Part shown: positions 7,887-27,158 of the stretch, in pieces
Layout of the letters: every line of letters starts with the position of its first letter
How positions within the stretch are numbered: position 1 is the first letter of the stretch
NCBI GenBank assembly: GCA_045616925.1
Contig: JAZLHQ010000199.1
Location: 1 to 34,851, forward strand
Direction of reading: 5' to 3'
Length of the DNA stretch: 34,851 bases
DNA from: Eubacteriales bacterium
GTDB lineage: Bacteria > Bacillota > Clostridia > Oscillospirales > CAG-272
The notes under the pieces: generated by a model
The model's input: the letters and a program-made list of their open reading frames with translations, nothing else
The model's database searches: none
Told to the model about the DNA's origin: nothing
Made by a program: the position numbers and the translations under genes

Positions 7887-8354
7887 TTACAGAATTTCCT
7901 CCATCGTGTACTGCATGACGTGCATCCCGAGGTGACGGTAGAAGCCGACGGCGTCGGGGTTGCATTCCCACGCGTGCAGGGTGACGTTATGGCAGCCGAT
8001 CTTCTTCGCGTAGTCCTTCGCGTATTCGTAGAGCGCCCGTCCGACGCCCGTTCCGCGCGCCGAGGCGGTGACGCAGAGGTCGTCTATATAAAGATTTTTG
8101 AGCGGGTGGGTCGAGGACGTTTCGGGGCGGTTTTTCACCTGGCAGAAGCAGTGCGCGACGACGCTTGCTTTTTCGTCCTCGTAAACGAAGACGGGGTTTT
8201 CGTCGTCGAGAAGGATCTCCCGAAGCTCCTCTTTCGTATATTTCTGCCCGACGGGCTTGAAAATGTCGGGTCGCCCCGCGTTGTGGACGGCGAGTACTTC
8301 GAGCAGAAGCCCCTCGATTGCTTTGATGTCTTTTATTTCAGCTCTGCGGATCAT
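7887..8354 (-). CDS. GNAT family N-acetyltransferase
   Basis: 155 aa with the acetyl-CoA pocket motif RGTGVGRALYEYAKDYAKKIG and typical GNAT length and topology. Confidence 0.88.
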   Translation of the reverse strand: MIRRAEIKDIKAIEGLLLEVLAVHNAGRPDIFKPVGQKYTKEELREILLDDENPVFVYEDEKASVVAHCFCQVKNRPETSSTHPLKNLYIDDLCVTASARGTGVGRALYEYAKDYAKKIGCHNVTLHAWECNPDAVGFYRHLGMHVMQYTMEEIL

Positions 8355-8369
8355 TTTGTACCTCGTTGT

Positions 8370-10193
8370 TTAGTCAATATTTCTGTTTTTTCCGTAGAAA
8401 ATATTGCCCGCTTCAAGATTTTTGCGGTAGGCACACGCCTTGCTGTATAATTGATTCTCGTGAAGGCAGCGCTTTGCATCGGAACATTCTTCGAATTTTC
8501 CGCAGCATCCGAACGGGGAAGCTTTGGAAACATAGGTGGCTATTGCGTATTTCGTACAATTCTCAACGTATTTTGTCAACGATGATGAATTTGCAGCATA
8601 CAAAACGTGCATATTGATATTATCCGACTGTAATTCCTTAATTTCTGCGTCTTCGGGCGCGTTTATGGCTTTATATTTGTCTTTCGCGACCAGCAATTCC
8701 AATTTGTCGCTGCTTTCTTTGATATTTAAGATGACGGAACTCTTTGACGAGTCTGCGGAAGATTTTGAAAACGGGCTGTCCGGCTCGCAAATACAAACGG
8801 AATAAGATGTGATTTTGCTTTTATCTTGCCCGTAATTCGTAATCAAGCAAAGTGAGTTTTGCGGCAGATTTTGCTCTTTCTCAATTTCGGTTAGTGAATT
8901 TTGGATCGCTGATTTCCAACAAGCGGATGAGGCAGCGGCGACACCCGTTTGGACGTTTTCTTCATCAATTACTTCCATAGCATTTACCATATCCATAAAA
9001 TTAGCCTCTTCAATAATTGTAATATTGGATCCTTTTTTCTGATATTCCATAGCTTTTTGGATTTTTCCTCCGTAATTGCCGGCTTTCCAAGCTTCGCTTC
9101 CTTTGGCACCGACAACAAGGTAGTCCGTAGTCTTTTTCACGCTTTCATCAATAGATCCTCCGTGAGAGATGATTATGCTTTCAACATCCCGTTTTTGCCC
9201 GTAATCAAATTCGCCGGTCAAACAAACGTGTTTTTCCATTAGCGTACAAATGCTTTGGTTGCAATGTTGACTCTTTACGGGGTCTATTATTTCAGAAAAG
9301 ATTTGTTTGATTTCATTGGTTTCATCATCGGAGATCACGCCGTCTTCAAATGCCTTGTCGAGAGTTTCGATTATTTGTTTGAACGGATACCGATCAGAAA
9401 GATATTTGTGCGATTTTTCCCATTGACGCACGGTATCGATCTCCTCGTTGCTCAATATGCCATCGCTCAAAAAGCCGCTCAACATCTCTTTCAGTTCGCG
9501 CAGGCAAATGGTATCTATGGAGTAGTGCGGCTCGGAGCAATAACAATCACTTGACGGCGCAAAAGCCGAGTCTCCGTATTTTGCATATAGAAAATCATAA
9601 CAAGCTTTGGTCGCGTAGCAATCCGACAATGCGCGGTGCGCGTCTGTATTAGTCACGCCGAAACACTCGCAAAGTGTTGAAAGTTTGTAATTTTCGAGCT
9701 CTTTGACCGATCTTCTTGCCGCGTGATACACATCTACATAATCGTTTGAAAAATGAATGTTTCTCAACGACAGCGCCGCGTCGTAAATGTAATTGACGTC
9801 AAACGACGAGTTATTATAACCGACGACAAGATCATTTCCGACAAAAGCGAGAAACTGGTCGATCACTTCGTCCAAAGTCGGAGCGTCTTTTACCATATCG
9901 TCCGTAATATGATTGATTCTTGTCGCTTCTTCAGGGATATGACATCTCGGATTGATAAGCGTCGAGAATTCGTCTACGACGTTGTTGTTTCTGACTTTTA
10001 TTGCGGAAATTTCGATAATTTCAGCTTGACAAACCCCGGTCGTTTCGAGGTCGAATAGGCAATAGTCGGAAACATATTTGCGGGCGTTTTTGCCTTTATA
10101 AGGCCTTGCCACATTAGTTTTAGACTCGTTGCTCATAGAAACGGAAACGTTTCCGCCTTTTTCGGCGCAGATAATGATAGAAAGACCCGGCAT
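8370..10193 (-). CDS. DEDDh (DnaQ/epsilon-like) 3'-5' exonuclease fused to a helical linker, a BRCT domain and a Cys-rich C-terminal domain
   Basis: 607 aa with GGAGG 7 nt upstream of the ATG at 10193. Exo I is FDLETTG, Exo II is GYNNSSFDVNYI and Exo III is HRALSDCYAT. The BRCT-like segment VCLTGEFDYGQKRDVESIIISHGGSIDESVKKTTDYLVVGAKGSEAWKAGNYGGKIQKA follows the LigA BRCT pattern. The C-terminus reads FGCCGKFEECSDAKRCLHENQLYSKACAYRKNLEAGNIFYG. The gene is about 40-45% GC against about 60% in both neighbours (sampled lines). Confidence 0.8.
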   Translation of the reverse strand: MPGLSIIICAEKGGNVSVSMSNESKTNVARPYKGKNARKYVSDYCLFDLETTGVCQAEIIEISAIKVRNNNVVDEFSTLINPRCHIPEEATRINHITDDMVKDAPTLDEVIDQFLAFVGNDLVVGYNNSSFDVNYIYDAALSLRNIHFSNDYVDVYHAARRSVKELENYKLSTLCECFGVTNTDAHRALSDCYATKACYDFLYAKYGDSAFAPSSDCYCSEPHYSIDTICLRELKEMLSGFLSDGILSNEEIDTVRQWEKSHKYLSDRYPFKQIIETLDKAFEDGVISDDETNEIKQIFSEIIDPVKSQHCNQSICTLMEKHVCLTGEFDYGQKRDVESIIISHGGSIDESVKKTTDYLVVGAKGSEAWKAGNYGGKIQKAMEYQKKGSNITIIEEANFMDMVNAMEVIDEENVQTGVAAASSACWKSAIQNSLTEIEKEQNLPQNSLCLITNYGQDKSKITSYSVCICEPDSPFSKSSADSSKSSVILNIKESSDKLELLVAKDKYKAINAPEDAEIKELQSDNINMHVLYAANSSSLTKYVENCTKYAIATYVSKASPFGCCGKFEECSDAKRCLHENQLYSKACAYRKNLEAGNIFYGKNRNID

Positions 10194-16868: not shown

Positions 16869-16897
16869 TTGACATTTCCGATAATTTATATTATTAT
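16869..16897 (+). promoter_or_regulatory. Candidate sigma-A promoter for the GH16 gene (and probably the first repeat lipoprotein gene)
   Basis: TTGACA at 16869-16874, a 17-nt spacer, then TATTAT at 16892-16897. It lies about 45 nt upstream of the ATG. Confidence 0.5.
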
Positions 16898-16940: not shown

Positions 16941-17756
16941 ATGAAAATATACGACGTTGAGAAGCACGAACCGAGCTTTTTGCCGGACGGCGAATGGGAC
17001 CTCGTTTTCGCGGACGAATTCGACGGAAACACGCTCGACAGAACGAAATGGGACTACCGCCTCTCGATGATGGGCAAGGTGCATCCCGCGTGGACGGACG
17101 AGGGCGTCAGACTCGACGGCAAGGGCAACTGCGTCTTCGAACTTATCGAAAAAGACGGGATGCCCGTCAGCTCGCAGCTCCAGACCGGCTACAATTTTAT
17201 GGATCAGCCGCTCGTCAGAACCACCTTCGAGAAGGACGATCTGCAGTGGACGATCGGAAAACTGCACGAAAATCTTTACACGCACACCTACGGCTACTAC
17301 GAATGCCGCTGCAGACTCCAGCAGAAGGAAGGCTGGTGGACGGCGTTCTGGATCCAGTCGCCGATCATCGGCGCATCGCTCGATCCCGCCGAAAGCGGCT
17401 CCGAGCTCGACGTCATGGAGAGTTTTCATCCCGGCGTCGTCTCCCCGCACAACGCCTTTTCGGGCGGATACGGACTTGACAAAAAGAGGATCAAGGTCGG
17501 CGGCGTCACGGTAAACGAGAAGGAATTCCACCGCTTTGGGATCCTCTGGGACGAAACGGGCTACACGTTCTACGTTGACGGAAAAGAGGACGGTAAGATC
17601 ACCGATCTCGTCTCCCGCCGCCCCGAATTCATTCTGATCACGACGGAGCCGAGAGGCTACCGCATGGAGCAGCACTACCCGACCGAGGAAGCTTTCGCGG
17701 CGATCGGCGACACCTTCGTCGTCGATTACGTGCGCGTCTTCGACAAACGCGCCTGA
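16941..17756 (+). CDS. Glycoside hydrolase family 16 (beta-glucanase/laminarinase-like), no signal peptide
   Basis: Start trimmed to MKIYDVEKHE with AAAGGAGAA upstream. It has DEFDGNTLDRTKWDY and the catalytic E-x-D-x-x-E motif (SELDVME). 271 aa. Confidence 0.88.
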   Translation: MKIYDVEKHEPSFLPDGEWDLVFADEFDGNTLDRTKWDYRLSMMGKVHPAWTDEGVRLDGKGNCVFELIEKDGMPVSSQLQTGYNFMDQPLVRTTFEKDDLQWTIGKLHENLYTHTYGYYECRCRLQQKEGWWTAFWIQSPIIGASLDPAESGSELDVMESFHPGVVSPHNAFSGGYGLDKKRIKVGGVTVNEKEFHRFGILWDETGYTFYVDGKEDGKITDLVSRRPEFILITTEPRGYRMEQHYPTEEAFAAIGDTFVVDYVRVFDKRA

Positions 17757-17780
17757 CAAATCTGATTAAGGGGAAATTTT

Positions 17781-20105
17781 ATGAATTTCAAGAAGATTTT
17801 GTGTCTGATCCTCGTTCTGGCGGCGGTTTTGACGCTTGCGTTCACCGCCGTTTCCTGCAAGGATAAGGGCGAAAATGAAGAAAAAGAAGAAAAAAAGACC
17901 GAGAAAAAGGACGATCCGAAGAAGCCCGAAAAGGGCCCGTTCGACGGGGAATACGATTTCCTTTTCGACGATCAAACGGTCGTTTTGACGCTTGCGGGCA
18001 AGAATTTCTCGTTCGCGTGCATCGACGATTATAAGTACCGCGCGGACGAACTGCCGGCGGAATTTTCCGACGGGGAGCAGTACTGGCTTTCGGAGCTTAT
18101 GATCTACAAAGGGGAATTCACCGCCGATGAAGAGACGAAGACCCTGACGGCAAAGATCCCCGATCTGATCCTTGCCTTCCGCACGGGAAGCACCGACGGC
18201 GAAAAAACGCACGTGTTCTCCGAATACCTCGTCAAATCCATGAGGGAAGACGCGGCGAAGTACGAGGACAAAACGATCCGCGAGCAAATACTTGCCGAAG
18301 CGGAGTCTATCGAAAAGGGCACCGACGTTCCCGCCGAAAAGGTCGGCAGGTCGCATCCCGCGCTCACGCTCACGATCAGAGTCGATACAAACGCGCATAA
18401 GGCGTATCTCGTCAAAGAGATCGCCGTGTATCCCGACGGCGAGACCGAAACGACCGGTTTCGACGAAAACGGGAAGCCGACCGAATCGGTCTCGGTCTAC
18501 GAGGACGAGGTCGAAGGCAAGGTCGTCGAGCGCTGCGTTTACGAATACGACGAAAAGGGAGATCTCGTCAAGAAAACCTATACCGACGAGAATGAAAAGC
18601 CGCTTGCCGTCTACCTCTATGAAAACGGCAGAGAAACGCAGGTTTCGCGCTACCGGGACGGCGTTCTTTACAACGACGTCCGGTTCGACGAGAACGGCGA
18701 AACGCTCGAGGAAACCGATTATTACGAAAACGGCAAGATCAAGACCCGTATGCTCTATAAGGACGGCAAAGCCGTCGAAAAGACTTTCTATGCCGAAGAC
18801 GGCACCGTTGAGCGCACGGTGACTTTCGGCGAGGAAAATGAAGAGTCCGAGATCATTTACAAGAACGGTCTGCCCGTTTTGAAGTCCGTCACCGTGAACG
18901 GCAAGCTCATGCTCGAGATCGAATTCGACGAAAAGGGCAACGAATACTACGAAACGAGATACGATTACTACCCAAGCGGCATGAAGAAGAACGTATCGTC
19001 GTATTTCAAAGGCATTCTGAGCGAAGTATCCGATTTCAGCGAGGACGGTCTCAACGAAAAGCAGGTCCGCTACAAGGAAGACGGCTCGGTCTTCCAGACG
19101 ATTTACAGCGTTATGAACTCCGCCGGCAATATCGTGGATCAGAAGTGGTACAATAATAAGGGCGTCAAGATCACCGATATCACCGCAAACGAGAACGGCA
19201 ACGTGCTCCTTGAGATCAATTACGACGACGACGGCACCGAATTCAGACGCGACGAATACGAATACGACGAGAACGGATTCTGCGTCCACGAGGTCTGCAA
19301 GTATCTCGGCAAAGTAATGTCCGAAATGATCTACCGGCCGAAAGACCGTATGCGCACGACCGTTTACTATAACGATCTCGGCGTGCTCGGCAGCAGCACG
19401 GTCGAATATTTCGACGAAAACGGCAAAAAGATCCGCACCGAGAACTGCAAAAGCGACGGCACCGTCTACCGCGAGGAGATCTTCAACGAAATCGAAGAGC
19501 CCGTGACCGTCAATTATTACGAAAACGGCAAGCTCGACTTCGTTTACAGTTATACCTACAACGACCGCAGAATTCGCATAAGGGTCGTCTGCACGAACGC
19601 CGACGGGACCCTGTATTCGGAAAACATCTTCTCCGATAACGGCCGCTCCCTCTCCGAAACGGTTTACGACGAAAAGGGCAATATCACCGAGCAGTATATC
19701 TACGATTATTATCCGAACGGCAATATCAAGTCCTCGCTGCAGTACGGCGCGGGCGGCGTTCTGCGCGCGGAGGTGTACTTCAACGAGGACGGTCACGAAC
19801 TGTACGAGAATCTGTACGACGTAAACGGCAATCTCACCGAGTACGCGAAGTTCGAATACTACGAAAGCGGCGCTTTCAAGCATTATGAGGACGTTTTCGT
19901 CGACGGCGGGCTCTACCGCGAGCGCGACGCGACGGAGGACGGACTCTATTCCATCGACAAATATTACGACGAAGGCGTTCTCTCGATGACCGACGAGATC
20001 GAGTACTATCTGAACGGATTCATCAAATCCTTCGTCGAAAAGAACGGCAGCGGAAAGATCTTCTACGCCGAATACTACGACGAGGAAGGAAACCTGATCG
20101 GCTGA
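17781..20105 (+). CDS. Repeat lipoprotein paralog A (MORN-variant/YD-like beta-hairpin repeats)
   Basis: 774 aa. The signal peptide has lipobox AVSC and is followed by a K/E-rich linker. The N-domain begins FDGEYDF..VVLTLAGK, and the rest is made of Yx(E/D)NG-type units (YYENGKIKTRMLYKDGKAVEKTF...). The start lies 24 nt after the GH16 stop with AAGGGGA upstream and no intervening terminator. Confidence 0.85.
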   Translation: MNFKKILCLILVLAAVLTLAFTAVSCKDKGENEEKEEKKTEKKDDPKKPEKGPFDGEYDFLFDDQTVVLTLAGKNFSFACIDDYKYRADELPAEFSDGEQYWLSELMIYKGEFTADEETKTLTAKIPDLILAFRTGSTDGEKTHVFSEYLVKSMREDAAKYEDKTIREQILAEAESIEKGTDVPAEKVGRSHPALTLTIRVDTNAHKAYLVKEIAVYPDGETETTGFDENGKPTESVSVYEDEVEGKVVERCVYEYDEKGDLVKKTYTDENEKPLAVYLYENGRETQVSRYRDGVLYNDVRFDENGETLEETDYYENGKIKTRMLYKDGKAVEKTFYAEDGTVERTVTFGEENEESEIIYKNGLPVLKSVTVNGKLMLEIEFDEKGNEYYETRYDYYPSGMKKNVSSYFKGILSEVSDFSEDGLNEKQVRYKEDGSVFQTIYSVMNSAGNIVDQKWYNNKGVKITDITANENGNVLLEINYDDDGTEFRRDEYEYDENGFCVHEVCKYLGKVMSEMIYRPKDRMRTTVYYNDLGVLGSSTVEYFDENGKKIRTENCKSDGTVYREEIFNEIEEPVTVNYYENGKLDFVYSYTYNDRRIRIRVVCTNADGTLYSENIFSDNGRSLSETVYDEKGNITEQYIYDYYPNGNIKSSLQYGAGGVLRAEVYFNEDGHELYENLYDVNGNLTEYAKFEYYESGAFKHYEDVFVDGGLYRERDATEDGLYSIDKYYDEGVLSMTDEIEYYLNGFIKSFVEKNGSGKIFYAEYYDEEGNLIG

Positions 20106-20114
20106 CAGCCTCCG

Positions 20115-20156
20115 AAACCTCCCGCGCGGGCAAGACCGCCACGGGAGGTTTTTTTG
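20115..20156 (+). terminator. Rho-independent terminator after paralog A
   Basis: aaacctcccg...cgggaggttt stem followed by a T run (gggaggttttttt). Confidence 0.8.
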
Positions 20157-20164
20157 TATTTTGC

Positions 20165-20193
20165 TTGACAAACCGCAAAATTTATAGTAAAAT
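20165..20193 (+). promoter_or_regulatory. Candidate sigma-A promoter of paralog B
   Basis: TTGACA at 20165-20170, the 17-nt spacer aaccgcaaaatttatag, then TAAAAT at 20188-20193. The -35 and downstream 10 nt (TTGACAAACCGCAAAA) are identical to the paralog C promoter. Confidence 0.6.
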
Positions 20194-20221
20194 GTAAAAA
20201 ATACGAAAAAGAGGTATGATC

Positions 20222-22621
20222 ATGAAACGATTTGCCAAGATCCTCAGCCTGATCCTCACGATCCTGACGGTACTCGCGGCGTTCGCCTCCTGCGCGCGGG
20301 ACGGAGAAGAAGAGGACGACGAAAAGAACGGGAAGAAGGGTTCCTCCGGCTACGACGGCACGTACGACATCGTGTCCGGCGGCGAAGAAGCCGAACTCAC
20401 GATCGACGGCAAGAAGATCACGCTTTCCGCGGCGGAAGAAGAAGCGGACACAGAGGAGCTCATCGAGGAGCTGGGCCTTGACGAGAACGCGGACGTGACG
20501 ATGTCCGAAGTGGTGAGCTACGTCGGCACATGGGAAAAGGACGGCGACGGTACGATCAAGGCGGACTTCACGGAGATGAAGACCGGCGTCACCTTCAAGG
20601 GCAAGGACGCCGATAAGGCGAAGAAAGCGTACATTGGGTATCTCGAGGAAAATCTCGAGTATTTCGGCGACGACCCCGAAGCGAAGAAGGGCATCACCGC
20701 GATGATCGACTCCGTCAAGACCGGCAAGCCTATGAACTATGAGGATATGTACGGCGAAAAGGGACCCGAGATCATCGCCGTCATCGGCCTCGACACGAAG
20801 AACAAGACCGCGAAGATGATCTCCTCGAAGCAGATCGTGCTCGACGAGGACGGCAAGGTCGACTCCTATACGGAAACGAAGTATAACGACGACGGCAATC
20901 CCGTTGAGGAAAGGCATTTCGACGCCGACGGCAGGCTGACCGGCTCGGACACGACCGAATATTACGGGAACGGCAACGAAAAGAAATACACCACCTATGA
21001 CGCAAACGGCGCGATCGAGGCGATCCGGGAATACCACGAAAACGGCAGAGAGAAGGAGCACTCGATCTATATCGACGGCAGGCTCAAATTCGTCGAAACG
21101 TTCGACGAGGAGGGCAACTGCGTCAAGACGCAGTACTACGACGAAAACGGGCAGCCCTACGATCCGTTCGGCCCCGTCGTGCCCGTCGAACCGACGCGGG
21201 ACCCCGACTGCACCTACGACGAGAACGGAAACGTCGTCGAGCGCAGATATTACGACGAAAACGGCAATCTTTCCGTAAAGACCGTTTACGAATACTACGA
21301 AAGCGGCGCGCTCAAACGCGAGACCTCGTACGACGCCGTCGGCAATATGCTCGAGGATCACGAATATTTCGAGAACGGCGGCGATAAAAAGGAGAGCTAT
21401 TACGAGGAAGGCACGCTCATTCAGCGCAGCGAATGGGACGAAAACGGGAATCTTATCGAGGAATATTCCGTTGAATGGGGCGGGCGGATCACCCGCAGGA
21501 CCTTCGTCTTCGACGAAAAGGGCAGGGAGATCGAGTCCTGCCGTTACGCGCAGGACGGCGTGACCGTGAATACGAAGACCGTGACCGAATACTACGAAAA
21601 CGGAAACAAGAAGCACGTCGTCGATTATAGCGACGGCGACGTCGTATTCATCGACACCGAATTCTACGAAAACGGCTTCGAAAAGATCATCAAATGCTAC
21701 TTTAACGACGGAACGCTCTCGCAGGTCATGACGTTCAACGAGGACGGCACGAGAGGCCCCGATACGACATTCGACGAGAACGGCAAGATTAAGAGCGAGA
21801 CCGAATATTATCCCGACATCTCCACGAAGATCGAAAAGACCTACGTGGACGGCAAACTCAGCCACGTTTCCGAATACTATGAAAACAGAATGGAAAAGGC
21901 GAGGATCGACTACTATCCGAGCGGCACCGTTTCCTACCTTCTGCATATCGACGAAAAAGGAAGGGCCATTGAGGAAGCCTACTACGACGAAAAAGGGAAA
22001 GCCACCCGCCATTATCTCCATACCTACGACGAGAACGACAGACTGATCGAGGAAAGCACAGGAAACGACGACGACGGGATGGAAAGAACGGTGTACGAGT
22101 ACGACGAAAACGGCGTTCTGACCGCGGACGTTACTTACGACGCCAAAGGGAAAGTGAAGGCGAAGACCTCCTACTACGCAAACGGGAACCGCCGTATCCG
22201 GGAATATTACGAGGACGGCGTGCTCTATAACAAAATAACGTATGCCGAAAACGGCACACGGATCGAAGACGTGTACGTCCGGTCAGACGGAACTCTCTAC
22301 AGCAAGAGCGTTTACGACGAAAACGACAACGTCGTCGAGATGTTCTATTACGACGAGAAGGAAAACGTCGATCAGCACTACGTCTATACCGACGATGAAA
22401 ATGGATTCAGAATTCTTGAAAGGTACTACGACGCCGCCGGCAATCTGACGGGTTACAGGGAATTTTCCTACGAGAACGGGGAAATGGTCGAAGCCAGGGA
22501 CTATATCAACGAAAACTATATGTGGTGCAAAACGGTTTTCGACGCGAACGGAAACATTACCGAATATTATTACGACAAGAACGGCAATCCGACGGATCCG
22601 TATTATCCGTTCCATGATTGA
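20222..22621 (+). CDS. Repeat lipoprotein paralog B
   Basis: Start set at the second ATG (MKRFAKILSLILTILTVLAAFASC), 7 nt after GAGG. 799 aa. The N-domain is clearly homologous to paralog C, and it is followed by long YxENG repeats. Confidence 0.88.
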   Translation: MKRFAKILSLILTILTVLAAFASCARDGEEEDDEKNGKKGSSGYDGTYDIVSGGEEAELTIDGKKITLSAAEEEADTEELIEELGLDENADVTMSEVVSYVGTWEKDGDGTIKADFTEMKTGVTFKGKDADKAKKAYIGYLEENLEYFGDDPEAKKGITAMIDSVKTGKPMNYEDMYGEKGPEIIAVIGLDTKNKTAKMISSKQIVLDEDGKVDSYTETKYNDDGNPVEERHFDADGRLTGSDTTEYYGNGNEKKYTTYDANGAIEAIREYHENGREKEHSIYIDGRLKFVETFDEEGNCVKTQYYDENGQPYDPFGPVVPVEPTRDPDCTYDENGNVVERRYYDENGNLSVKTVYEYYESGALKRETSYDAVGNMLEDHEYFENGGDKKESYYEEGTLIQRSEWDENGNLIEEYSVEWGGRITRRTFVFDEKGREIESCRYAQDGVTVNTKTVTEYYENGNKKHVVDYSDGDVVFIDTEFYENGFEKIIKCYFNDGTLSQVMTFNEDGTRGPDTTFDENGKIKSETEYYPDISTKIEKTYVDGKLSHVSEYYENRMEKARIDYYPSGTVSYLLHIDEKGRAIEEAYYDEKGKATRHYLHTYDENDRLIEESTGNDDDGMERTVYEYDENGVLTADVTYDAKGKVKAKTSYYANGNRRIREYYEDGVLYNKITYAENGTRIEDVYVRSDGTLYSKSVYDENDNVVEMFYYDEKENVDQHYVYTDDENGFRILERYYDAAGNLTGYREFSYENGEMVEARDYINENYMWCKTVFDANGNITEYYYDKNGNPTDPYYPFHD

Positions 22622-22638
22622 CTTTTTGGGGAAATTAC

Positions 22639-22667
22639 TTGACAAACCGCAAAAAATGTGGTATTAT
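22639..22667 (+). promoter_or_regulatory. Candidate sigma-A promoter of paralog C
   Basis: TTGACA at 22639-22644, a 17-nt spacer, then extended -10 TGgTATTAT (22662-22667). It lies only 17 nt after the paralog B stop, with no terminator between them. Confidence 0.6.
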
Positions 22668-22695
22668 GCAGAAAATACCGAAAAGGAGCAACACT

Positions 22696-23532
22696 ATGAA
22701 AAATTTTGCAAGAATCCTCAGCATCATTCTGGCGATCCTGACGGCACTGTCCTGTCTGGCTCTCGTTTCCTGTAACGAAAAGGACGAAGACGACGAGGAC
22801 GACAAAAAGAGCGGCTCTTCTTACGACGGCGTCTACGACATCAATACGGGCAGCGAAGCTTCCGAAAAGCTCGAGATCAAGGGCAACAAGGTCACTCTCA
22901 GCGGCGGAGACGTAATCGACTCCGAAGAAATGATCAGCGAGCTCGGTCTCGAAGAAGGAACCGACGCGCAGATGATCGAAAAAATGGTTTATACCGGCAC
23001 GTGTAAAGAGGACGGCGACGGTGTGATCATCGCAGAGTTCACGGAACTCAAGATCGGCCACGTCTTCGAAGGCAAGGACGCCGAGAAGGCAAAAAAGGCG
23101 TACGTTGAGTACCTTGAAGGTGTGCTCGCGTTTGCCGAAGACGATCCCGAGACCGCTTCCATGGTCAACGCTATGCTGAAGTCGATCAAGGAAGACAAAT
23201 TCCTCGATTACAAGGACGTGTTTGACGAGATCCCGCCCGAGATCACCGCGACCATCAAGCTCGATACCAAGAAAAAGACCGCGATTCTGACCTCCACGGT
23301 GGACGTCTTCAAGGACGAAAACGGCAAGATCGTCTCCAAAACGGAAAGTAAGTACGACGAAAACGGAAACGAGATCGAATCCAAGGAGTACGACGAAAAC
23401 GGCGAGCTGACCGAGGTCACGAAGATGGAGTACTACCCGAACGGCGAGCTCAAGAAGCGCACGCATTACGATGCCGAGGGCAACGTCACGAGCTCCTGGG
23501 AATACGATGAAAACGGCGACGTTATTTGGTAA
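22696..23532 (+). CDS. Repeat lipoprotein paralog C (short form: N-domain plus only a few repeats)
   Basis: Start trimmed to MKNFARILSIILAILTALSCLALVSC with AAAGGAG upstream. 278 aa. It ends after about six to eight YDENG-type hairpins (...WEYDENGDVIW). Confidence 0.85.
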   Translation: MKNFARILSIILAILTALSCLALVSCNEKDEDDEDDKKSGSSYDGVYDINTGSEASEKLEIKGNKVTLSGGDVIDSEEMISELGLEEGTDAQMIEKMVYTGTCKEDGDGVIIAEFTELKIGHVFEGKDAEKAKKAYVEYLEGVLAFAEDDPETASMVNAMLKSIKEDKFLDYKDVFDEIPPEITATIKLDTKKKTAILTSTVDVFKDENGKIVSKTESKYDENGNEIESKEYDENGELTEVTKMEYYPNGELKKRTHYDAEGNVTSSWEYDENGDVIW

Positions 23533-23562
23533 GATCACTCGAAAACGCGATCGTTTTCATTT

Positions 23563-23598
23563 GAAGCGGAAGGTCAACGACCTTCCGCTTCTTTTTTT
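23563..23598 (+). terminator. Rho-independent terminator after paralog C
   Basis: gaagcggaaggtc-aac-gaccttccgcttc (13-bp perfect stem) followed by TTTTTTT. Confidence 0.88.
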
Positions 23599-23600
23599 GC

Positions 23601-23629
23601 TTGACAATTCGGAAAATGTGTGATAAAAT
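23601..23629 (+). promoter_or_regulatory. Candidate sigma-A promoter of paralogs D and E
   Basis: TTGACA at 23601-23606, a 17-nt spacer, then extended -10 TGaTAAAAT (23624-23629). Confidence 0.6.
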
Positions 23630-23658
23630 AAGAAAAAAGCGCGTGGAGGCATCGGTTT

Positions 23659-25917
23659 ATGAAACGTATTGCAAGAATTTTGTGCATGATCCTTGCGGCT
23701 TTGATGATTTTCTCATCGTTGATCGCGTTTTCGGCGTGCAAAGATAAAAACGACGGCGAAAAGGGCGAAAAGTCAAAGGAAACCACCGAAGAAAAGGGAG
23801 GGGAACCCAATCCCGAGCCGCTCAAAAAGTCGTACGAAACGAAATATTACGGTGGGGACGCCGAGATCCTGCTCGAAAACGGCGTCGCCGAGCTGACGTC
23901 CGGGGAGTTCGGACCTCCCGATATGGCAGCGCTTCTCGAACTTGACGGAAACGACGGCAAGAACGTCGGACGCGTCTATTCGATCACGGGTACTTACAAG
24001 GAGGCGGACGGAAAGGTAATCGCCTCCATGACACAGAAAAAAGTGAAGTTCGTCTTCACGGGCGAGAACGGGCAGAAGTACAAGGATGCCTACCTCGAAT
24101 GGCAGCACAAGTTCGCCGATGCGTGGGATGACGAGTCCGACGCGCTCACGGGACCGAACGCGGTGATCGACGCGATCGAAAACGACAAGTTCGTCGAAGT
24201 CGAAAAGATCGGCATGGACCCGCTGTGCCCGACGACGCTCGAGCTGAAGCTCGACAAAGACGCGATGACGGCGCAAATGCTGGCTATCAAAGAAGAGACT
24301 GCGTACCCGGGCGGCAAGAGCATCACGCTGCTCAATGAAAACGGCGATATGATCGGATTCGAAGATTACGACGCAAGCGGTGCTTTGCTGCTTGTGGAAG
24401 TGTACGACGAAAACGGCAGCTTAAGAAGCGCCGAGAACTACGAAAACGGCATCATCGTCGAAAAATTCGAATACGACGAAAACGGCGATCTTGTCTATAA
24501 AACGCATTACGAGGAGGGCAAGGTCGAATTCGTTGATACTTACGAAAAAAACGCTCTCCTTTACAGAGAATATCCGAGCGAAAACGGGAAAGTCGCGCGC
24601 CGGAAGTATTTTGACGAAAACGGCAGGATCGTCAGAGAGAGCGAGTTCTCCGAGAGCGGCAAACTCGTCAAAATGAGTACCCGTGACGCAAACGGGGTGA
24701 TCGTCGCCGTCAACGAATACGACGAAAACGAAAATCTCGTCCGCACGACCCGCTACGAGGAGGACGCTACGTTCGTTGATACGTTCGACGGGAACGGAAA
24801 ACTCACCGAAGAAACCGTTTACGACACGAACGGCAAAGTCATTTCGTCCGAAAAATACGTTTACGACGACAAGGGAAATCTGATCGAAGTCGGAAAGTAC
24901 GACGAAAACGGCGAACTTCTTGAGAAGGAAAAGTTCACCCTCGACGAAAACGGAAACAAGATCGCAAGTATTACGACCGATGCGAAGGGCACCGTCCTTT
25001 ACGAGAGCGAATTTTACGCAAGCGGCAGACAGAAGACTCTCAAAACCTACGAAGACGGCAAACTTCTGACCTTTGAGACCTACAACGAGGACGGAAACCT
25101 CGTCGAAAAGATCGACTACTACGAAGACAGTCAGAACAGATACGTTTACGAATACAACGCCGCCGGCGTGCGCACGGGCGGCAAGATGTACGACGAAAAC
25201 GGAAACGTTCTCGGCGAATTCACCTACGACGAAAACGGAAACGATCTTTCCGAGCGCTACTACGACGAAAAGGGCAATCTGACCTCCGAGGGGTACTACG
25301 ATCCCGACGGAACGTACCATTGGAAGACCTATTGGGGCGGCAAAATCAGCTATCAGGAGATCCGGAGTGCCAACGAAGTCACTTCGATGTACTACGACGA
25401 ATTCCTCAACTATTACGGCAAAGCGGTCATTCGTTATAACGTAAACAACGAGATCCTCGAAGAGCTCGAATACGACAAGTTCGACAATCTGGTCAGCGAC
25501 CGCGTCAACGTCTACGACGAAATGGGACGTCTCGTCAGTTACACCACGCTCGACGGCAGCGGAAAGAAGATCGAGACGGGCGAATTCGAATATTACGTCA
25601 CGACGGGCGAAATGCGCGTCTGGCGCGTGCGCTATGGGGACGGAGCACTGAAAATCGAGCGCGATTACTACGAAAACGGCGAGATAAGCGCGTATTATTC
25701 CTATTATCCGAGCGGGAAGCTTGAGAATCAGTCCCGCTACGACGAAGAGGGCAACTGCGTTTACGACGCTTCGTACAGCGAACTCGGATTTGCGACGTAC
25801 GAGCGTGTCGTCGGCGAGAAGGACGTGACGGTCACTGCGGCGCACGACGACGGAAAGATCTACCGCATCGAGAAATGGACGCTCGACGGCGAACTGATCT
25901 CCATGGAAGTGTTCTGA
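23659..25917 (+). CDS. Repeat lipoprotein paralog D
   Basis: 752 aa. It has lipobox FSAC, a K/E-rich linker, an N-domain (VYSITGTYKEADGKVIA..FVFTGENGQKYKDAYLEW) and about 40 YxENG-type hairpins by eye. GGAGG lies upstream. Confidence 0.88.
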   Translation: MKRIARILCMILAALMIFSSLIAFSACKDKNDGEKGEKSKETTEEKGGEPNPEPLKKSYETKYYGGDAEILLENGVAELTSGEFGPPDMAALLELDGNDGKNVGRVYSITGTYKEADGKVIASMTQKKVKFVFTGENGQKYKDAYLEWQHKFADAWDDESDALTGPNAVIDAIENDKFVEVEKIGMDPLCPTTLELKLDKDAMTAQMLAIKEETAYPGGKSITLLNENGDMIGFEDYDASGALLLVEVYDENGSLRSAENYENGIIVEKFEYDENGDLVYKTHYEEGKVEFVDTYEKNALLYREYPSENGKVARRKYFDENGRIVRESEFSESGKLVKMSTRDANGVIVAVNEYDENENLVRTTRYEEDATFVDTFDGNGKLTEETVYDTNGKVISSEKYVYDDKGNLIEVGKYDENGELLEKEKFTLDENGNKIASITTDAKGTVLYESEFYASGRQKTLKTYEDGKLLTFETYNEDGNLVEKIDYYEDSQNRYVYEYNAAGVRTGGKMYDENGNVLGEFTYDENGNDLSERYYDEKGNLTSEGYYDPDGTYHWKTYWGGKISYQEIRSANEVTSMYYDEFLNYYGKAVIRYNVNNEILEELEYDKFDNLVSDRVNVYDEMGRLVSYTTLDGSGKKIETGEFEYYVTTGEMRVWRVRYGDGALKIERDYYENGEISAYYSYYPSGKLENQSRYDEEGNCVYDASYSELGFATYERVVGEKDVTVTAAHDDGKIYRIEKWTLDGELISMEVF

Positions 25918-25941
25918 GAAGAATAAGAGGAGCATAACGGA

Positions 25942-27105
25942 ATGAGAAAATCGATTTTTTTGAAAATCACGGCAGGGATTTTGCTTCTGATCGTCCTTTT
26001 AAGTGCGGTTTCCTGCCGTAAGAAGGAACAAAATACGGGCAAGGTCTATTCGATCACAAACGGCAATCCCGATATGACTTTGACGCTTGACGGCGAAAAC
26101 GCGAAGATCACGACTGTCGTCACGACCTCCCTCGGCGATGAAACGATGGAGGCGCTCGGTCTTGCCGACGCGCTCCGCGATACTGTCGTCAAGGAAGTCC
26201 ATACGACGATCCTTGAGGGAACGTTCAAAACGCTCGATAACGGCGGCGTCAGCGGCGTAAGCGTTCGCTGCGCGCATACGCTGCTCGGTCTTGCCTATAC
26301 GGGCGACGGCGCCGAAGACGTTCTCAGAATCGAGATCGAGCGCCATCAAAGTCTCGCCGCAGAGGCGCGCACCGCCGGCGATCCGGACGGCACGGCAAGC
26401 CAGTACGACGCTTACGTCGAAATGCTTGAGAGCGGCGAGCTTATCGAGGCGACGCGCCTCGGCTACGGGCAGTACGACATGGGATACGTCTTTTCGCTCG
26501 ACGAGTCCGAAATGACGGCAACGCTCAAAAAGCAATCCAACTACGATGAAAACGGCGTCGTTTTAGACGAATGCACCTTCTCCGAGGACGGTTCCGTCGT
26601 TTCGGAAAACAAATACGCAAACGGCGTTCTCGTCGAGGCGGACGAATTCTTTGCAAGCGGACGGCTCAGCCACAAGATCGTTTATCAGGCGCCGAACGTG
26701 CCCGATTACGAGCGTTTTTACAACGAAAACGGCGAGATCGTGCACAACGCTCTTTACGACCAAAACGGCAAACTGATCCGCGAGGATTATTACGACGGGC
26801 AGGGGTGCTATCACGGCGTTGACTACTACGAAAACGGGCAGACGCGCGCCGAAGAGCTTTACGACGCAAACGGCGTTTTCTCGGTCTTCCGCGAATTTAC
26901 CGAAAACGGCGATCTGACGTACGAAGAAAAGCCCGTCGGCGACGGCACTTTCGAAGGATTTTTCTTTGAAAACGGCGTCAAAACGGGGAAAAAGATCCTG
27001 AACGGGCAGGGAAAAATCATTTACGAGGCGACTTTTGACGCCTCGGGCAATATCGTCACCGAGCAGAAATACGACGAAAACGGCGAGCCCATCCCCGCCG
27101 TATAA
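25942..27105 (+). CDS. Repeat lipoprotein paralog E (divergent, shorter)
   Basis: 387 aa. It has lipobox AVSC and an N-domain beginning GKVYSITNGNPDMTLTLDGENAKI. The repeats include NYDENGVVLDECTFSEDGSVVSENKYANGVLVE. AAGAGGAG lies upstream and there is a 24-nt gap after D, so it is probably co-transcribed with D. Confidence 0.85.
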   Translation: MRKSIFLKITAGILLLIVLLSAVSCRKKEQNTGKVYSITNGNPDMTLTLDGENAKITTVVTTSLGDETMEALGLADALRDTVVKEVHTTILEGTFKTLDNGGVSGVSVRCAHTLLGLAYTGDGAEDVLRIEIERHQSLAAEARTAGDPDGTASQYDAYVEMLESGELIEATRLGYGQYDMGYVFSLDESEMTATLKKQSNYDENGVVLDECTFSEDGSVVSENKYANGVLVEADEFFASGRLSHKIVYQAPNVPDYERFYNENGEIVHNALYDQNGKLIREDYYDGQGCYHGVDYYENGQTRAEELYDANGVFSVFREFTENGDLTYEEKPVGDGTFEGFFFENGVKTGKKILNGQGKIIYEATFDASGNIVTEQKYDENGEPIPAV

Positions 27106-27111
27106 AACAAA

Positions 27112-27141
27112 CGAAAAAACGCCCGCAAGGGCGTTTTTTCG
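27112..27141. terminator. Bidirectional rho-independent terminator between paralog E and the convergent GH29 gene
   Basis: cgaaaaaacgccc-gcaa-gggcgttttttcg, a perfect 13-bp stem with A/T runs on both sides. Confidence 0.88.
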
Positions 27142-27158
27142 TGGGTGTGTTCGTGCCG

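Follow-up and report, generated by a model that had tools for sequence, protein, structure and literature searches.

Five consecutive genes, here called A to E, on the forward strand of contig JAZLHQ010000199.1 from a Eubacteriales bacterium (assembly GCA_045616925.1) code for predicted lipoproteins that join a very rare N-terminal domain of about 160 aa, the N-domain, to a variable number of 12-residue repeats related to the YD repeats of Rhs proteins. The whole 34,851-nucleotide contig was analysed and is referred to as the window. Our preferred reading, to which we give a probability of about one half, is that the array is a lineage-specific tandem expansion of rare, non-enzymatic, lipid-anchored binding scaffolds of the envelope or cell surface, comprising five paralogs in three to four transcription units. 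To our knowledge, YD/Rhs repeats are known almost only from shells that surround toxins, in Rhs proteins and Tc toxins, and from the ectodomain of teneurins. What is new here is the occurrence of Rhs-type YD repeats without toxin machinery behind a predicted lipid anchor, joined to an undescribed N-domain.

The first-pass annotation, made from the sequence alone, had proposed a run of five same-strand paralogs of 774, 799, 278, 752 and 387 aa, and its coordinates proved to be exact (Table 1). BLASTP comparisons of the products gave E-values between 3e-82 and 2e-6 (B-C 3e-82, B-D 1e-64, A-B 1e-48, A-E 2e-6), confirming from the translated sequences that the paralogy of A to E goes beyond chance. 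The closest pair aligns over 276 aa, with C corresponding to residues 1-275 of B at 50% identity. All five open reading frames (ORFs) are intact and each is preceded by a ribosome-binding site (RBS); the ORF of gene B also opens at 20216, and RBS spacing favours the start at 20222. Codon-aligned nucleotide identity amounts to 60-65% in the B-C segments and to 40-48% in the other N-domain pairs, and the duplications are old. For the B-C pair, the ratio of nonsynonymous to synonymous substitution rates (dN/dS, NG86) was 0.50 when computed on the N-domain and 0.58 on the first repeats; in the other pairs dS was saturated at 1.1-1.6. Because the B-C ratio lies below 1, the genes are still under purifying selection, and by this measure the constraint on B and C is relaxed yet purifying. 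Diversifying selection, which had been suggested at first pass, is thus unsupported, given a B-C ratio of about 0.5, saturation in all other pairs and no orthologous arrays for comparison. Recent amplification, gene conversion and phase variation were rejected as well, since the DNA repeats inside the array are only short and diverged (60-86% identical over 20-60 nucleotides (nt)) and long identical tracts are absent. Among about 15 billion proteins, the products of the array and the related clusters described below are singletons or near-singletons.

Export was assessed with a rule of the PROSITE PS51257 type, which requires a positively charged n-region followed by a hydrophobic h-region and places the Cys of a lipobox [LVI..][ASTV..][AGS]-C between positions 15 and 35. 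All five products have a Sec-type signal peptide that satisfied this rule, with K or R within the first seven residues, a hydrophobic core and the Cys at positions 24-27, which upholds the signal peptides and lipobox motifs read at first pass; we infer that this Cys is lipidated in A to E. Five of the six relatives tested, described below, satisfied the rule too, while the sixth (P0014) has the near-lipobox LPAC. The lipobox is followed in A to D by a K/E/D-rich linker of 15-30 residues; the linker claimed earlier for all five proteins holds for these four, but that of E is very short. The five proteins have an acidic composition, with 18-25% D+E versus 7-12% K+R.

Right behind lipobox and linker lies the N-domain, an alpha/beta domain whose five copies align end to end. 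A profile built solely from relatives outside the window recovered the copies of B (4e-29), C (2e-24), D (8e-12) and E (2e-11) and, weakly, that of A, which bears out the earlier claim of a shared domain. In a six-frame translation of the window the same profile matched nothing beyond A to E, and therefore the window contains no sixth copy. All five paralogs match a signature made of a conserved Y (YDI), a conserved G (GTY/W) and F-x-G-x-D-A, and the predicted order of secondary-structure elements is b-b-b-a-b-b-a-a-a-b-b, after which the YD-like units begin. An AlphaFold2 model of the N-domain of B, computed from an alignment of the five paralogs only, reached a predicted local distance difference test score (pLDDT) of 89.8 and a predicted TM-score (pTM) of 0.79. 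In the modelled domain, two long helices accompany seven strands, some of which form one long hairpin; the last two strands enter the repeat sheet.

As the first-pass annotation had found the domain unrecognisable, so did the searches of Pfam, NCBIfam, PDB profiles and, by Foldseek, the PDB and BFVD, which gave no credible match. With the N-domain model as query, the best Foldseek E-values were 0.16 in the PDB (TM-score below 0.33) and 0.09 in BFVD; resemblances to calycins, avidin and VtrC were rejected (TM-score below 0.33, probability below 0.5), and a helical F-BAR match at E 0.0045, obtained with the N-domain sequence profile against PDB chains, was judged spurious. Only Y5, G59 and G84 are invariant or nearly so across 11 N-domain members, and no catalytic-type constellation is apparent among them. 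This paucity of invariant residues argues for a structural or binding role rather than an enzymatic one. We propose the N-domain as a candidate new domain family, with a confidently predicted fold that lacks a PDB or BFVD match.

The remainder of each protein consists of repeats. By autocorrelation, A, B, D and E show a period of 12 aa at z-scores of 7-13, while the N-domains show none, and the variable number of Y-D-E-N-G hairpin units of about 12 residues described at first pass was thereby substantiated; the counts run from 6 units in C to about 49 strands in B. In the model of B the consensus is x-x-x-[YF]-D-E-N-G-N-[LVI]-x-E, a strand of 7-9 residues plus a five-residue turn, and 33 of its 47 strand-turn units have turns of exactly five residues. 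The AlphaFold2 model of full-length B (mean pLDDT 81) displays 49 consecutive strands of 7-9 residues arranged as a single-layer antiparallel beta-hairpin meander of the YD type, instead of the beta-solenoid that had been expected. Only two hydrophobic residues are conserved per 12-residue unit, an aromatic one before the turn and an aliphatic one after it; since the other positions are mostly charged or polar, this pattern fits a coreless single-layer sheet.

Profile hidden Markov model (HMM) scans supported the dual MORN_2 and RHS/YD resemblance that had been noted by eye. Bit scores against RHS_repeat (PF05593, cut-off 22) were 62.5 for D, 34.4 for B, 25.6 for C and 14.1 for A, with no match in E; those against MORN_2 (PF07661, cut-off 29.6) were 40.6 for D, 33.6 for B, 29.0 for E, 25.4 for C and 15.3 for A; and the NCBIfam YD repeat TIGR01643 (cut-off 15.8) matched D (32.9) and B (30.1). 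A Foldseek search with the model of B retrieved, at probability 1.0, Rhs effectors of the type VI secretion system (7q97, E 2.6e-25), Tse15, teneurins and TcB/TcC, and a tblastn search with D against plasmid and chromosome records retrieved E. coli genes for 'RHS element core protein', to which D is 24% identical across about 570 aa (E 1e-8). In view of these sequence and structural matches, we consider the repeats to be true relatives of Rhs-type YD repeats, and in this variant every turn is a YD turn, which makes the period 12 rather than about 21 residues.

The rest of the Rhs architecture is missing. The Rhs core (PF03527, TIGR03696) had no match at E≤1 in Pfam or NCBIfam scans of A to E, the autoprotease motif DPxG[LWFIV] occurs in none of the five, and the repeats reach the last residues of every paralog, leaving no C-terminal toxin or extension. 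PAAR, VgrG and plug modules are likewise absent from the array proteins, which, unlike Rhs proteins, carry a lipid-anchor signal and belong to a predicted monoderm host. Superposed on Rhs cocoons, the model of B gave a TM-score of about 0.1 and a root-mean-square deviation of 36-40 Å. We do not take an open global shape as shown, because the model has a pTM of only 0.42 and was computed from a five-sequence alignment.

Several observations concern the internal organisation of the long forms. The repeats of B are split by a 23-residue Pro-rich insertion, DENGQPYDPFGPVVPVEPTRDPD (residues 307-329, window positions 21140-21208, pLDDT below 50), which starts about 30 residues past residue 275, the point at which the short paralog C ends. 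In P0016, one of the relatives, the N-domain and a few initial repeat-like strands are followed by a long S/T/A/P-rich linker. Long forms may thus be composed of the short-form module, a hinge and a second YD block. A precomputed Pfam list for D (P0007) includes PF27244.1, which local Pfam-A did not report.

The N-domain is very rare outside the array. When 1.84 billion cluster representatives were searched exhaustively with HMMER, 15 matches were returned: four on the contig itself, six related clusters (P0010, P0012, P0014, P0016, P0018 and P0020) and five giant multi-repeat proteins. The last group was treated as spurious, as the matches cover short stretches only and the three proteins scanned were all repeat proteins of the Ig-like, Tudor and FN3 kinds. 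Two further members, P0025 and P0044, were found among the repeat homologues, and the gene upstream of P0025 is another, bringing the members outside the contig to nine. Pattern scans of species-representative genomes and JGI metagenomes confirmed nothing; the broader N-domain alignment contains no stretch conserved enough for such a scan. All members are predicted lipoproteins in which the linker leads straight into the N-domain, and YD-like units follow in all except P0020 (196 aa, possibly incomplete). Short forms of about 300 aa recur in unrelated genomes (P0012, P0014, P0018). Single-copy relatives, including proteins sharing only the repeats, are P0012 (locus L081), P0021 (L083-86), P0022 (L088-89), P0044 (L095), P0023 (L096) and P0056 (L090-93), and the one tandem pair among relatives is P0025 preceded by its second N-domain paralog. 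The loci of the relatives share no conserved neighbour genes, and neither toxin genes nor genes of a type VII secretion system (T7SS) adjoin them.

In contrast to the N-domain, the repeat is widespread. With the repeat region of D as query, at least 270 proteins matched at E≤1e-5 among the 8000 candidates that were scored; nearly all come from Clostridia and are named 'hypothetical' or 'YD repeat-containing'. Of the 119 best repeat homologues, at least 75 carry a strict lipobox, and a near-lipobox or a wrongly called start accounts for several others; in the remaining ones the module lies behind a transmembrane anchor, follows a signal peptide accompanied by a dockerin, is combined with a zinc ribbon and a transmembrane segment, or forms the outside part of Ser/Thr kinases. 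As the module is found behind lipobox, transmembrane anchor and dockerin and on the exterior of kinases, it is probably extracytoplasmic and re-used as an outward-facing part. The class of proteins with a lipobox and YD-like repeats is common in gut Clostridia and annotated only as hypothetical. One of them, P0056, a lipoprotein of about 675 aa, occurs widely in human-gut assemblies (148 blocks of the collection) and is recorded as 'hypothetical protein EGQ30_05605 [Clostridiales bacterium]'. In its group, as in the array proteins, the lipobox precedes several hundred residues made up of the same 12-aa YD-like units; the group differs in that a short helical N-terminal segment replaces the N-domain, which within the class only P0025 and P0044 share, and in being single-copy in the contigs seen. 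A literature search combining YD repeat, lipoprotein and Firmicutes found no paper. Elsewhere in Clostridia, YD-like modules are fused to Ser/Thr kinases, with a transmembrane segment in between, to TIR domains and to dockerins (P0093, P0107, P0134, P0082, P0094).

Individual promoters had been attributed to all five genes. Promoter-like sites of their own precede only B, C and D, whereas A begins 25 nt after a gene for a glycoside hydrolase (GH) of family GH16 and E begins 24 nt after D. A conserved block, TTGACAAnnCGnAAAA, is found upstream of B (20159-20201), C (22633-22675) and D (23595-23637), and since the three sites have it in common, the promoter was duplicated together with the gene. 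Across B, C and D, the promoter block and the signal-peptide coding region are each conserved at 72-77% DNA identity (20149-20274 versus 22623-22748; repeat families D17 and D18), and the promoter before the GH16 gene matches the block at 60%. The hairpin between the convergent gene E and a GH29 gene on the reverse strand is probably a bidirectional terminator. Judged from these signals, GH16-A, B, C and D-E are probably transcribed as separate units, and transcription of B may read on into C.

Table 1. Features of the lipoprotein array and its surroundings (window positions)
Feature	Position	Strand	Description
Gene A	17781..20105	+	774 aa; lipobox AVSC, Cys26; K/E-rich linker; N-domain; about 45-46 repeat units; most divergent paralog
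Gene B	20222..22621	+	799 aa; lipobox FASC, Cys24; N-domain, then repeats
Gene C	22696..23532	+	278 aa; lipobox LVSC, Cys26; short form, N-domain plus ~6 repeat units
Gene D	23659..25917	+	752 aa; lipobox FSAC, Cys27; strongest YD/RHS signal; ~45 repeat units by length
Gene E	25942..27105	+	387 aa; lipobox AVSC, Cys25; short linker, N-domain, ~15 repeat units
N-domain of A	17940..18419	+	residues 54-213; hhalign probability 96.7%, E 3.7e-10, full length against a profile of the other members
N-domain of B	20351..20830	+	residues 44-203
N-domain of C	22822..23301	+	residues 43-202; E 2.7e-60 to the family profile
N-domain of D	23821..24291	+	residues 55-211
N-domain of E	26038..26538	+	residues 33-199
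GH16 glycoside hydrolase gene	16942..17756	+	Pfam PF00722, E 4.5e-12; catalytic E-L-D-V-M-E
Promoter-like site upstream of GH16	16869..16897	+	sigma-70 type; TTGACA-17-TATTAT, 11/12 match; RBS AAAGGAG before ATG 16942
Promoter-like site of B	20165..20193	+	TTGACA-17-TAAAAT, 11/12 match
Promoter-like site of C	22639..22667	+	TTGACA-17-TATTAT, extended -10 TG, 11/12 match
Promoter-like site of D-E	23601..23629	+	TTGACA-17-TAAAAT, with TG, 11/12 match
Intrinsic terminator after A	20114..20155	+	hairpin then U7; RNA fold -26.1 kcal/mol, z -4.3, 0/200 shuffles as good
Intrinsic terminator after C	23563..23598	+	13-bp stem then T7
Hairpin between E (+) and GH29 (-)	27111..27142	.	A/T runs on both sides; -25.6 kcal/mol, z -5.6

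Long ORFs also run antisense through the array on the reverse strand (17766-20171, 20075-22021, 22603-23538 and 24421-25935; up to 801 aa). They were rejected as genes, having no independent signal; they are probably by-products, because the sense strand is rich in the codons GAC, GAA, AAC and GGC, whose reverse complements are stop-free.

The contig is chromosomal and carries rplJ/rplL, cysK, gpsA and ald. Its CysK is 68-72% identical to proteins of Oscillospiraceae, Eubacteriales and Clostridia metagenome-assembled genomes from animal guts, and because this identity agrees with TTGACA/TATAAT promoters and GGAGG RBSs, the host is most likely a monoderm member of the Bacillota, an Oscillospirales-like gut bacterium of the Clostridia. 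Glycoside hydrolase and esterase genes are numerous (GH95, GH51, GH16, GH29, CE15, BD-FAE), and carbohydrate-active enzymes (CAZymes) account for about a quarter of the genes in the window. The GH16 gene lacks a signal peptide sequence, and neither a promoter nor a terminator lies in the gap between its stop codon and gene A; it is probably co-transcribed with A and not a member of the lipoprotein family. As the first-pass annotation had it, neither the five proteins nor the ORFs scanned across the window contained a catalytic, toxin, sortase, SLH, transporter, regulator or recombinase module. The five proteins also lack a dockerin part, and the window ORFs scanned contained no LXG, WXG100, T7SS, Rhs-core or other toxin domain. 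PADLOC models gave no match, PHROGs gave noise at the level of signal peptides only and searches of phage genomes stayed at noise level too, and on these grounds a defence-system or phage origin of the array was rejected.

A link between the array and glycan degradation was also considered and rejected as support. In its favour are the GH16 gene upstream of A, a GH127 gene upstream of P0016 and GH29 genes near both the array and P0056. However, at only 32% identity the two GH29 proteins do not amount to synteny with P0056; adjacency to a glycoside hydrolase is expected by chance, given the share of CAZymes among window genes; and unrelated genes neighbour the other relatives. In two cases a same-strand glycoside hydrolase lies directly upstream, the GH16 gene 25 nt before A and the GH127 gene (locus L082, 2-883) 49 nt before P0016 (932). 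This arrangement is missing at other relatives and may reflect chance in CAZyme-rich genomes.

Two further features of the window lie away from the array. A 607-aa gene on the reverse strand (8370-10193) codes for an RNase_T (DnaQ-like) exonuclease with a BRCT domain, in a stretch (8001-10000) of 43-47% GC versus 55-60% around it, and this low-GC stretch could be a horizontally acquired insert. Zinc-ribbon proteins, one of them fused to SPFH/Band-7, are encoded at 188-1276 and 1321-2790 on the reverse strand, 15 kb from the array. Zinc-ribbon genes also lie in locus L081 (606-2654), directly and divergently upstream of P0012; their presence near both the array and P0012 is probably a coincidence.

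We compared the array with described protein systems that share part of its features. Staphylococcus aureus Lpl/DUF576 genes form head-to-tail arrays of diverged paralogous lipoprotein genes, like those described here, but fold and sequence are unrelated and no DUF576 match was found in the array. Borrelia OspA is likewise lipid-anchored and contains an antiparallel beta meander whose single-layer sheet has no core, and Foldseek aligned the model of B to engineered OspA (E 1e-9 to 1e-6, TM-score up to 0.37 on the target). There is nonetheless no sequence relationship, and the two globular ends of OspA flank 21 strands, as opposed to up to 49 repeat strands in the array proteins. The Y-Y-E-N-G-x motif is shared with MORN_2/YwqK proteins, and B and D exceed the MORN_2 cut-off, whereas A, C and E stay under it; the array proteins further differ in their lipobox and distinct N-domain and in having no neighbouring toxin or autotransporter. 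A YwqK antitoxin would be a small cytoplasmic protein encoded beside an LXG or other polymorphic toxin, while the array codes for predicted exported lipoproteins of 278-799 aa. The nearest analogue is an expansion of exported MORN2-domain proteins in Fusobacterium, a different phylum, which share export, paralog expansion and variable repeat number with the array and whose function is likewise not described (PMC12940168).

Under our preferred reading, the lipidated Cys would keep the N-domain tethered near the exterior side of the cytoplasmic membrane, and the acidic YD ribbon would reach into the wall or pass through it, binding a glycan or protein ligand as a non-enzymatic scaffold. Differences in length and sequence among the paralogs would then give differing reach and specificity. 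The N-domain could be a folding cap or the membrane-proximal base of the ribbon, and would be able to exist with few repeats, as in C, or perhaps with none, as in P0020. The wall-spanning, adhesin, decoy and immunity roles raised at first pass are likewise no more than candidates. Several points weigh against this picture. For lipidation and surface exposure there is a rule-based prediction; the full-length model, with its low pTM and poor superposition on Rhs shells, gives no reliable global shape for the ribbon; and the geometry is unusual for an adhesin, in that the conserved globular domain adjoins the anchor and not the tip. Since neighbours differ between relatives, genomic context lends no functional support, and the names on record for the members, all 'hypothetical' or 'YD repeat-containing', come with no ligand, partner or phenotype. 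A more far-reaching version, which we put forward tentatively, holds that the array represents an undescribed use of YD repeats, in which an open, toxin-less, lipid-anchored ribbon growing from a new-fold cap would serve as a length-tunable surface binding organelle or, alternatively, as a hetero-oligomeric surface shell, with the array supplying a repertoire of specificities towards glycans of plant or host origin or towards neighbouring cells.

Other explanations account for part of the evidence. The proteins might be structural parts of the envelope, whose YD ribbon binds peptidoglycan or a secondary wall polymer, in the manner of choline-binding or CWB hairpins, and acts as a spacer, ruler or tether between membrane and wall. 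By the model of B, about 49 strands at about 4.8 Å each would form a flat ribbon of about 20 nm, which equals the thickness of the wall; a lipid anchor suits a tether, the composition is very acidic, and the members differ chiefly in length. Yet they show no similarity to CW_binding_1, CWB2, SLH or LysM, a Choline_bind_3 match (E 0.35) was non-significant, and so rare and patchy a family is unexpected in a core envelope role, which makes this explanation unlikely. Rather more doubtful is a function in immunity, with YwqK/MORN_2-like lipid-anchored envelope proteins each neutralising a different secreted polymorphic toxin. Arrays are a frequent arrangement of immunity genes, and some immunity proteins of monoderms are lipoproteins (for example TipC and DUF576/TilA); the MORN_2 scores of B and D and the tandem, diverged paralogs, some with promoter-like sites of their own, would suit such a function. 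It is opposed by the lack of toxin domains in the window ORFs scanned and beside the relatives, by the empty PADLOC result, by the size of three members (750-800 aa, several-fold above that of typical immunity proteins) and by the cytoplasmic location of canonical YwqK proteins.

The homology of the repeats to the shell repeats of Rhs, Tc and teneurin proteins raises the prospect of encapsulation, in which YD strips close, alone or as hetero-oligomers in the manner of TcB and TcC, around a cargo, the N-domain being plug or cargo. The YD regions of A, B and D, at about 540-600 aa, are close in size to the TcC half of a shell, and D and E appear to be co-transcribed. We nevertheless hold this to be highly unlikely, as Rhs core, DPxGL motif and C-terminal extension are all lacking, the model superposes poorly on cocoons, and C and E are too short to form a shell. 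We give least credence to the notion that the genes are decaying or redundant duplicates without a specific present role, C being a truncated remnant of a B-like gene. The match of C to the first part of B, the relaxed B-C constraint and the singleton status of the proteins would all be expected of decay; the intact ORFs with their RBSs, the 11/12 promoter-like sites before GH16-A, B, C and D-E, the terminators after A, C and E, the recurrence of short forms in other genomes and a dN/dS that indicates persisting purifying selection would not.

The domain boundaries, the profile and the defined member set provide an annotation resource for the family of lipid-anchored scaffolds that we favour, and C (278 aa) and E (387 aa) are small targets for structural and binding studies. 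Beyond the array, the occurrence of the same repeat alone behind a predicted lipid anchor in several hundred unannotated proteins of Clostridia points to a widespread, unstudied envelope class in abundant gut anaerobes.

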